Assembly (NCBI RefSeq): GCF_002854065.1
Contig: NZ_CP024147.1
Length of the DNA stretch: 64,000 nucleotides
From: Escherichia coli
Lineage (GTDB): Bacteria; Pseudomonadota; Gammaproteobacteria; Enterobacterales; Enterobacteriaceae
Direction: 5' to 3' (one strand)
Part shown: piece by piece, positions 18,001 to 21,000 of the stretch
Layout: each line of letters opens with the position of its first letter
Numbering within the stretch: position 1 is the stretch's first letter
Program-made: the position numbers

Positions 18001-21000
18001 TACTCATTCAGGCGGCGGTGTTCGCCATACGTTGTTCGCGGTTTATCGCCTGCAAGGCGGAGACATCAACAATCAGTGCCACGCTGCCGTCGCCAAGAAT
18101 GGTCGCAGCAGAAATGCCGGGGACTTTGCGATAGTTACTTTCAAGGTTTTTAACCACAACCTGGTGTTGACCAATTAATTGATCCACCAGCAAGGCGTAG
18201 CGGCGACCGCCACTTTGTAAGATCACCACAATTCCCTGGGTGGCTTCGGTTTTCGCGTCCGCGACGTTGAACACTTTCCACAGTTCGACGATGGGCAGAT
18301 ATTCACCCCGCACTTCCAGCACCCGCTCGCCGCCGGCCAGTGGATGCAGATCGGCTTCACGGGGTTGCAGTGATTCCATAACAGCATTCAGCGGCAGAAT
18401 GAAAACTTCATCCGCAACGCGTACGGACATGCCGTCGAGGATGGCCAGCGTCAGCGGCAGTAAAATGCGGATCGTAGTGCCAGTACCCTGCTTCGACTGG
18501 ATTTCGACATGACCGCCCATCTCCTGGATATTACGTTTAACGACGTCCATGCCGACGCCGCGCCCGGAGACGTCGGTGACCTGCTCTGCCGTGGAGAAGC
18601 CTGGTGCAAATATCAGCATCGCGACTTCGTCGTCGCTCATGTTTTCGCTGACAGTCAAACCTTGCGAGGCCGCTTTTGCCAGAATTCGCTCACGGTTTAG
18701 CCCCGCCCCATCGTCGGTCACTTCAATGCAAATGTTGCCGCCCTGATGTTCGGCAGACAGAATTAAATTTCCGACGCTGTTTTTACCTGCGGCGAGCCGT
18801 TTTTCTGGCAGTTCAATACCGTGATCGAGGCTATTGCGTACCAGGTGGGTCAGCGGGTCGATAATGCGTTCTATCAGGCTCTTGTCGAGCTCGGTGGAAC
18901 TGCCCACCAGCGTCAGTTCTACCTGCTTGCCGAGTTTTCCCGCCAGATCACGCACCAGCCGGGGATAGCGACTAAAGACATATTCCATCGGCATCATGCG
19001 AATCGACATCACTGATTCCTGCAAATCACGAGCGTTACGTTGTAACTGCCCCATGCTGGTAATCAAATCACCATGATTAACCGGGTCCAGTTCGCTGGAA
19101 CGCTGGGCAAGCATGGACTGGGTGATAACCAGCTCGCCGACGAGGTTAATTAATTGATCAACCTTTTCTACCGCTACACGGATGCTGGTGGATTCACTGC
19201 TGCGCGTCGTTTTTTCCCGCTCCACGCGACCGGTTGGCGCTTGTTCGGCTGCCAGTTTAAGCACTGGTGGGGTGGATATTTTTGGCGAGACTTCTACTGT
19301 TTCAAAGGTAATCTGATCGGCTTCAATCACAAAACAGAGTACCGCTGTGATGTCATCTTCGGCGATATCGCCCGGTAATATTGCCGAGAGAGAATCCGCC
19401 CCTTTCACCACGTCAGTTAACGTTGTCAGATGCCCCAGCTCTTCTTCCAGCAGGTCGACTTCGCCGGCCTTCAGGCGCGAAAGGATAATTCGTCGCGGCA
19501 ACTGACTGCGACTCTGCTCATCTTGCGGTTCACTTTTGGCAACCACACTTAATCGGGTCACTGCGGATGGCGTTTCGCCTTTCGCTTCTAATGCCAGTTG
19601 ACGCAAGGCCTGGCAGATATAATCGAAGCTGGCGGCATCCGGCTCTTGCGACTGTTTGTAAGCGTCGAGCTGTTCTTGCATGATGTCCTTCGTTTCCAAA
19701 AACAGATTGATAATGTCGGTGTTGAGTTGCATCTCACCTCGTCTGGCTTCATCGAGCAGGTTTTCCATCAGATGCGTGGTTTCCTGCAAAACGCTGAAGC
19801 CAAAAGTTCCTGCCCCTCCTTTGATCGAGTGGGCAGCCCGAAAGATGGCATTCAATTGTTCGGCATCTGGCGCTTCCGGCTGCAAAACCAGCAGATGCTG
19901 CTCCATATCAGCCAACAGTTCGTCCGCTTCATCAAAAAATGTCTGATAAAAATCGCTTATATCCATGCTCACGCTGTCACCTCGGTTCGGCTGATGGCAT
20001 TGTGGGAACACTGACCTGTGGTGCAACCTCAGGTTTTTCCAGGGCGCTTACTGGCTCATTCTGGCTTTCGCCGTTTTCATGCAAAATGGCCTGTTCGGCT
20101 TGTTTGTTCAGTACCAGCAGGCTGATGCGACGGTTGACGGCATCATCAGGTCCGCGATCGCTTAAGCGCATCGTTGCCGCCATGCCGACGACACGTAACA
20201 CTTTGCCGCTATCCAACCCGCCGACCATCAGTTCGCGGCGGGATGCATTGGCCCGATCGGCAGAAAGCTCCCAGTTGCTGTAACCTTTCTCACCGCTGGC
20301 GTAGGGAAAATCATCGGTATGACCTGAAAGGCTAATACGGTTGGGAATACCGTTCAGTACAGGCGCGATGGCGCGCAGAATGTCGCGCATATAGGGTTCG
20401 ACATCGGCACTGCCGGTTTTAAACATCGGGCGATTCTGGCTATCGATGATCTGAATACGTAGACCTTCCTGGACCAGATCGATTTTGAGATGTGGACGTA
20501 ACGCCCGCAGTTTCGGATCGGACTCTATCAACTGGTCGAGATCACCCCGCAATTTCCGCAATCGACTTTGCTCCATGCGTTTTTTCAACTCTTCGATGTT
20601 CGGCTGCTTATTCACTTCCCCCTGGCTTTGGGTGTAATCATCGCCACCGCCGGGAATTGGGCTTTCACTATTAGAAATGCGATCGCCGCCCGTAACCGCA
20701 GTCGCCAGTGGAGTCCGGAAGTACTCCGCAATCTGAATCAACTCTTTTGGGCTGGAGATGGAGATCAGCCACATCACCAGAAAAAAGGCCATCATCGCGG
20801 TCATAAAGTCGGCATAAGCAATCTTCCACGATCCATGTGCTGCCCCGTGGCTTTTGGCTTTGCGTCGTTTGACGACAATAATCGGATGCGCTTGATTCTT
20901 CATGCTTCCTCGGTTGTCGTCTGTTGTTGCGGATTTTTCACCGCACGCACATGCTCTTCCAGTTCAATAAACGACGGACGTTCGCTGGAATAGAGCGTTT

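Follow-up and report, generated by a model that had tools for sequence, protein, structure and literature searches.

The short form of the chemotaxis kinase CheA, CheA-S, dates in the literature from 1980, with its mapping following in 1991, and serves as a standard example of an N-terminal proteoform in bacteria. In Escherichia coli K-12, translation of the 557-aa CheA-S from codon 98 is documented by both the literature and curated annotation: the protein initiates at ATG-98 according to PMC7696710 and "begins at Met-98" according to PMC7750401, and concordant summaries of CheA-S are found in PMC3676780 and PMC11005335. For the internal start codon, start(S), and its product, the relevant passages of PMC7696710 credit Smith & Parkinson 1980, Kofoid & Parkinson 1991 and Sanatinia et al. 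1995. An M98L change abolishes CheA-S and delocalises CheZ, and M98L strains have served successfully in chemotaxis experiments (PMC7696710).

The partner of CheA-S is the phosphatase CheZ, which is tethered to the receptor array by CheA-S (the CheA-S papers cited above). Binding is ascribed to Leu-123 and Leu-126 of CheA together with the aromatic apical loop of CheZ (PMC7750401, which cites Cantwell 2003 and Hao 2009 in its passage on this contact), and the CheZ-F98S variant is unable to bind CheA-S (PMC7696710). A second in-frame start that yields a shorter product with a distinct role, as in cheA, is also described for infB (IF2-alpha/beta), CcmM and SsaQ (PMC11005335). These are different genes and proteins from cheA, and the likeness is one of mechanism that implies no sequence relationship.

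The cheA locus and its internal ATG

We analysed a 64,000-nt stretch of an E. coli genome (hereafter the window), in which cheA is flanked by motB and cheW and encodes the five-domain kinase of the motA-motB-cheA-cheW operon (Table 1). The gene is 99-100% identical to E. coli cheA and comprises 654 codons plus a stop, running from a GTG start codon at 19972-19970 to a stop codon at 18010-18008. The Pfam domains of the encoded protein are Hpt/P1 (residues 8-100), CheY-binding/P2 (161-223), H-kinase_dim/P3 (261-324), HATPase_c/P4 (372-508) and CheW/P5 (514-640). Upstream of the full-length start, start(L), the sequence GAGGTGA (19983-19977) overlaps the motB stop codon TGA (19979-19977), and the Shine-Dalgarno (SD) duplex of start(L) has an energy of -10.2 kcal/mol.

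The first-pass annotation had proposed that a methionine codon within cheA, in the peptide DIMQEQ, is an in-frame start for a short form of CheA. The codon is present and in frame: counting 97 codons from the first base of the gene gives 19972 - 97*3 = 19681, and the ATG at 19681-19679 on the minus strand is codon 98 of cheA. Its peptide context is KDIMQEQ and the surrounding minus-strand sequence reads TTG GAA ACG AAG GAC ATC ATG CAA GAA CAG. In the protein, this position lies near the end of P1 and downstream of His48, the established phosphorylation site of CheA. CheA-S starting at codon 98 is without residues 1-97, including His48, and retains C120, L123 and L126. The short form had been described in the first-pass annotation as lacking the phosphorylation-site domain; this is correct for residues 1-97 and His48, but the C-terminal end of P1 (residues 98 to ~134) is kept.

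Table 1. Coordinates in the window of cheA, its two start codons and the associated features.
Feature	Coordinates	Strand	Basis
cheA full-length CDS (CheA-L, 654 aa, GTG start, stop included)	18008..19972	-	Translation, Pfam, 100%-identical genome
start(L), GTG codon 1 of CheA-L	19970..19972	-	Identical to PGAP and K-12 annotated start
CheA-S CDS, 557 aa (CheA-L residues 98-654; frame and stop common to both)	18008..19681	-	Derived; equivalent CDS in MG1655
start(S), ATG codon 98	19679..19681	-	Window sequence and translation
SD-like AAGGA (Lys95 AAG and Asp96 GA), followed by 4-nt spacer CATC and ATG	19686..19690	-	Window sequence
Conserved A+U-rich initiation region of start(S), codons 87-97, U5 tract at 19702-19698	19682..19714	-	Synonymous constraint, GC, accessibility
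His48 codon CAC, autophosphorylation site, CheA-L only	19829..19831	-	AAHSIKGG in translation
Codons 120-126 (C120, L123, L126), reported CheZ-contact stretch	19595..19615	-	Residues in translation; role from PMC7750401
cheZ, 214 aa, CheA-S partner	11041..11685	-	Translation RWDDWFADP, W97 and F98 intact

Identity of start(S) to the K-12 site

Under b1888, two cheA CDSs are given in the curated record of MG1655, NC_000913.3 1973360..1975324 and 1973360..1975033. Their difference of 291 nt equals 97 codons, which places the start of the second CDS at codon 98, the same codon that the first-pass annotation had identified as the known secondary start for CheA-short, in agreement with the literature. 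A match to the cheA region was found in 5380 of 5426 complete E. coli genomes, and the region is 100% identical to that of strain 100416 (human stool, Gambia). The PGAP annotation of strain 100416 contains flhDC, motA, motB, cheA, cheW, tar and tap, and cheA is represented there by one CDS. The earlier remark that gene callers give only one product is thus borne out by PGAP on the 100%-identical strain, but not by the curated K-12 record, in which both are listed.

From -61 to +20 around start(S), 82 nt are identical to K-12 MG1655 and O157:H7. The sole difference in a 101-nt alignment to these two genomes is a synonymous TAT>TAC change at Tyr105 (19657-19659, minus strand), 23 nt past the A of the start(S) ATG. 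A 71-nt segment around start(S) was matched at no less than 98.5% identity in 5378 of 5426 complete E. coli genomes, two of them exactly and the rest in the 95-99% identity band; the 11 non-exact matches listed across the ranking have a single mismatch each in the part that aligns, the last of them being aligned over 67 of 71 nt. Because only two of the 5378 genomes are exact over this segment, Tyr105 TAC is a rare synonymous variant. Over the whole gene, cheA of this strain differs from that of K-12 by 22 of 1965 nt and four amino acids (S158L, N259S, K484E and G572D), none of which falls in the initiation region. Codon 98, the domain architecture, and the contact residues of both CheZ and CheA are the same in this strain as in K-12.

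Shine-Dalgarno complementarity and accessibility of start(S)

A search for an SD-like sequence upstream of 19681, which the first-pass annotation had named as the check on its proposal, finds AAGGA at a 4-nt spacing from the ATG, with a predicted duplex energy of -5.4 kcal/mol with the 3' end of 16S rRNA. The SD of start(S) is only moderate in strength. Among the 16 in-frame ATGs of cheA, Met98 ranks third by SD complementarity and first by predicted accessibility (-18..+6). We rejected SD energy as sufficient evidence for Met98, as Met81 and Met307 are equal or better. A local trough in GC content at start(S) (0.375-0.40) resembles the trough at start(L), and no stable fold was found when the 101-nt region around start(S) was compared with shuffled sequences (z = +0.52).

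Codons 90-92 (CUGUUUUUG, 19697-19705) are complementary to codons 99-101 (CAAGAACAG, 19670-19678) on the minus strand, and could form a weak 9-bp A-U/G-U stem (-7.9 kcal/mol) that would enclose the SD and AUG98. Across 53 distinct sequences this pairing (with codons 99-101 as CARGAACAG) is kept in 92% of cells, compared with 38-63% in shifted registers, and the same 53 sequences contain no two-sided compensatory changes in the stem. Phe91 is near-fixed as TTT although TTC would give the stronger pairing, which speaks for U-richness and against selection on stem stability. A 9-bp stem around start(S) is therefore an unproven and weak idea.

On the plus strand, two antisense ORFs overlap this region (19680-19946, 88 aa, and 19598-20014, 138 aa), and we treated them as chance occurrences. 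The plus-strand ATG at 19680 is owed solely to ATCATG, and it is lost wherever codon 97 is ATT, as in 71 of 81 sequences (see below for the comparison set).

Conservation of the initiation region across Enterobacterales

A scan of species-representative genomes yielded 80 cheA loci from Enterobacterales, ranging from Escherichia to Proteus, Xenorhabdus and Thorsellia, giving a comparison set of 81 cheA sequences with the window included. ATG98 is present in all 81, including all 20 loci without the exact ETKDIMQE peptide; one of the peptide patterns used for retrieval held Met98, and it is only through these 20 loci that the resulting ascertainment bias is controlled. We rejected the invariance of Met98 as a diagnostic, as nine further methionines (M23, M287, M322 and others) are also invariant in the 81 sequences.

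Synonymous entropy was calculated per codon, relative to the gene-wide mean of each amino acid. The strongest synonymous constraint in the whole of cheA falls on codons 87-96, directly upstream of ATG98. The interval of lowest entropy is centred on codon 93 (mean dH -0.52); of 1000 shuffles within amino acids, 8 gave a minimum as low. Start(L), at the 5' end of the gene, has the next distinct dip. The consensus at start(S) in the 81 sequences is AAC CTG TTT TTG GAA ACN AAA GAY ATT ATG, with GAA in 81/81, TTT in 80/81 and CTG in 75/81. Mean GC at -30..+3 of start(S) is 0.31, against 0.54 for the cheA gene, and the accessibility of start(S) has a median rank of second among in-frame AUGs across the 81 species. 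These comparative signals indicate a functional RNA-level element just upstream of start(S).

ATG98, the LFLE[TA]KDIMQ peptide, the U-tract and the A+U-rich codons are common to all 81 sequences, which include Salmonella, Citrobacter, Enterobacter, Serratia, Yersinia and others. The SD is not. Lys95 is encoded by AAA in 77 of the 81, which gives AAAGAY and a weak anti-SD duplex (typically -3.3 kcal/mol), whereas AAG at this codon, which creates AAGGA, is found in only four: the window, a second E. coli, Cedecea neteri and Erwinia sp. OLFS4. With the ATG and A+U-rich codons retained where AAGGA is so restricted, the feature conserved across the order is an accessible A+U-rich region with a U-tract, and not a strong SD.

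The same data bear on Met81 (ATG 19732-19730, preceded by GAGGTGAG at 19740-19733, minus strand), which could be a further start codon or the true one for a short form. It has the best SD complementarity of the internal cheA ATGs (-6.8 kcal/mol) and low local structure. However, Met81 is replaced by leucine or isoleucine in 7 of the 81 species, and there is no synonymous constraint at this position. Its GAGGTGAG sequence is unconserved outside Escherichia, with CGA at Arg78 in only 6 of 81 and a variable Gly79. Met81 is not reported to give rise to any product, and changing codon 98 alone is reported to eliminate CheA-S (PMC7696710). Met81 is therefore unlikely as an alternative start, and we assign very little probability to its being the source of a short form.

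Conserved nucleotides upstream of start(S) could in principle be a signal at the DNA level, in which case the short form might derive from a transcript with an internal promoter; proteolysis of the full-length protein is another route that would bypass internal initiation on the full mRNA. No sigma-70-like promoter was found in 19450-20050 on either strand, which counts against a promoter, as do the exact end of the conserved stretch at the ATG and its A+U-richness, both of which an initiation region should show. Proteolysis is difficult to reconcile with the loss of CheA-S when codon 98 is changed (PMC7696710). Origins of this kind appear extremely improbable.

Origin of Met98

We compared the P1 domain with more distant homologues, using representatives at 50% identity. 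Of the 11 homologues with at least 70% identity, nine have methionine aligned to Met98 and two are frameshifted fragments. Leucine prevails at lower identity (15 of 20 homologues at 55-70%, 63 of 71 at 45-55%). Homologues with leucine often keep a FLETKDxL motif around position 98. Four sequences with approximately 61-68% P1 identity (P0019, P0020, P0022 and P0025) have a methionine one residue earlier, in KDML, in place of one at position 98. In the single such locus that was read, a MAG contig carrying motA-motB-cheA-cheW-cheR (L084, 1735-1810), AAGGAC directly abuts the ATG of this earlier methionine, too close for a normal SD.

Met98 could alternatively be nothing more than a hydrophobic residue of the P1 helical bundle, with no initiation occurring there in this strain. 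Many CheA methionines are equally invariant, the SD of start(S) is moderate and the PGAP annotation has a single cheA product, all of which would fit such a residue. On the other hand, the site is identical to that of K-12, for which the literature documents and the annotation records initiation at ATG-98, and the peak of synonymous constraint in cheA lies immediately upstream of Met98. Leucine occupies the position in homologues outside the enteric-like group, and M98L strains worked in chemotaxis (PMC7696710). We regard a purely structural role as having almost no likelihood. Given the leucine in distant homologues and the usability of M98L strains, Met98 is probably a derived state that was retained as a start codon rather than for structure.

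Other features of the window

Several non-coding RNAs were identified elsewhere in the window. MicL sRNA has a full-length Rfam match at 3087-3394 on the minus strand (369.6 bits), and C0465 RNA has an Rfam match at 17387-17464 on the plus strand (111.6 bits), located between cheW and tar on the strand opposite to the chemotaxis genes. A tRNA cluster, Leu(taa), Cys(gca) and Gly(gcc), is located at 35688-35989 on the minus strand. The K-12 record contains the sRNA MotR, which overlaps the flhC 3' end and the motA leader, and the antisense RNA AsflhD (L083 6209-6303 and 7177-7396, respectively); the equivalent regions of the window are around 21800-22000 and 22830-23050. MG1655 has an IS1H element upstream of flhD (L083 7504-8001). 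In the window, 22855-23624, between flhD and the next plus-strand ORF, contains no ORF of at least 110 aa, and judging from ORF content alone, the K-12 IS1H insertion is probably absent.

Discussion

The internal ATG is almost certainly start(S) of E. coli cheA, a site of internal initiation that yields CheA-S. Met98 stands above chance because it is identical to the experimentally mapped K-12 site and because of the comparative signals; the sequence of the window alone would be insufficient. By the same identity, this particular strain presumably makes CheA-S. The start is already known and is annotated in the K-12 reference, and the first-pass annotation is supported with two small corrections, concerning the part of P1 that is kept and the annotation of the second product.

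In the mechanism that we envisage, ribosomes would initiate independently at the codon 98 AUG on mocha-operon mRNA (motA-motB-cheA-cheW), within an initiation region that is A+U-rich and predicted to be weakly structured and that in E. coli additionally has the AAGGA SD 4 nt upstream. The resulting CheA-S (residues 98-654), being without His48, cannot be phosphorylated on its own P1; it keeps P2-P5 and would join the receptor arrays. What is left of P1 (around C120, L123 and L126) would be exposed and bind the apical loop of CheZ (W97/F98), and binding by CheA-S would in this way concentrate the CheY-P phosphatase at the receptor patch.

As a discovery, the site carries little weight, CheA-S being long known. 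It is of some practical use for annotation: PGAP lists one cheA product on a genome identical to the window, and the second product thus goes unrecorded, without notice, except in the curated K-12 entry. For the detection of internal starts by sequence alone, the comparative result serves as a clean positive control, combining as signals a synonymous-constraint peak, an accessible patch rich in A+U and a Leu-to-Met change specific to the lineage, just before an internal ATG.

The A+U-rich codon pattern CUG UUU UUG GAA ACN AAA GAY AUU AUG raises a more tentative possibility, which we consider somewhat doubtful: start(S) in Enterobacterales may be essentially SD-independent, relying on the U5 tract and A+U-rich codons, and possibly on the weak 9-bp stem. 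In E. coli, AAGGA would accordingly be derived, gained by a synonymous AAA>AAG change at Lys95 that would have arisen independently at least three times. An SD-poor pattern at start(S) may already have been noted by McNamara and Wolfe in 1997. If initiation at start(S) is indeed SD-independent across the order, E. coli would be predicted to have a higher ratio of CheA-S to CheA-L than Salmonella or Enterobacter.
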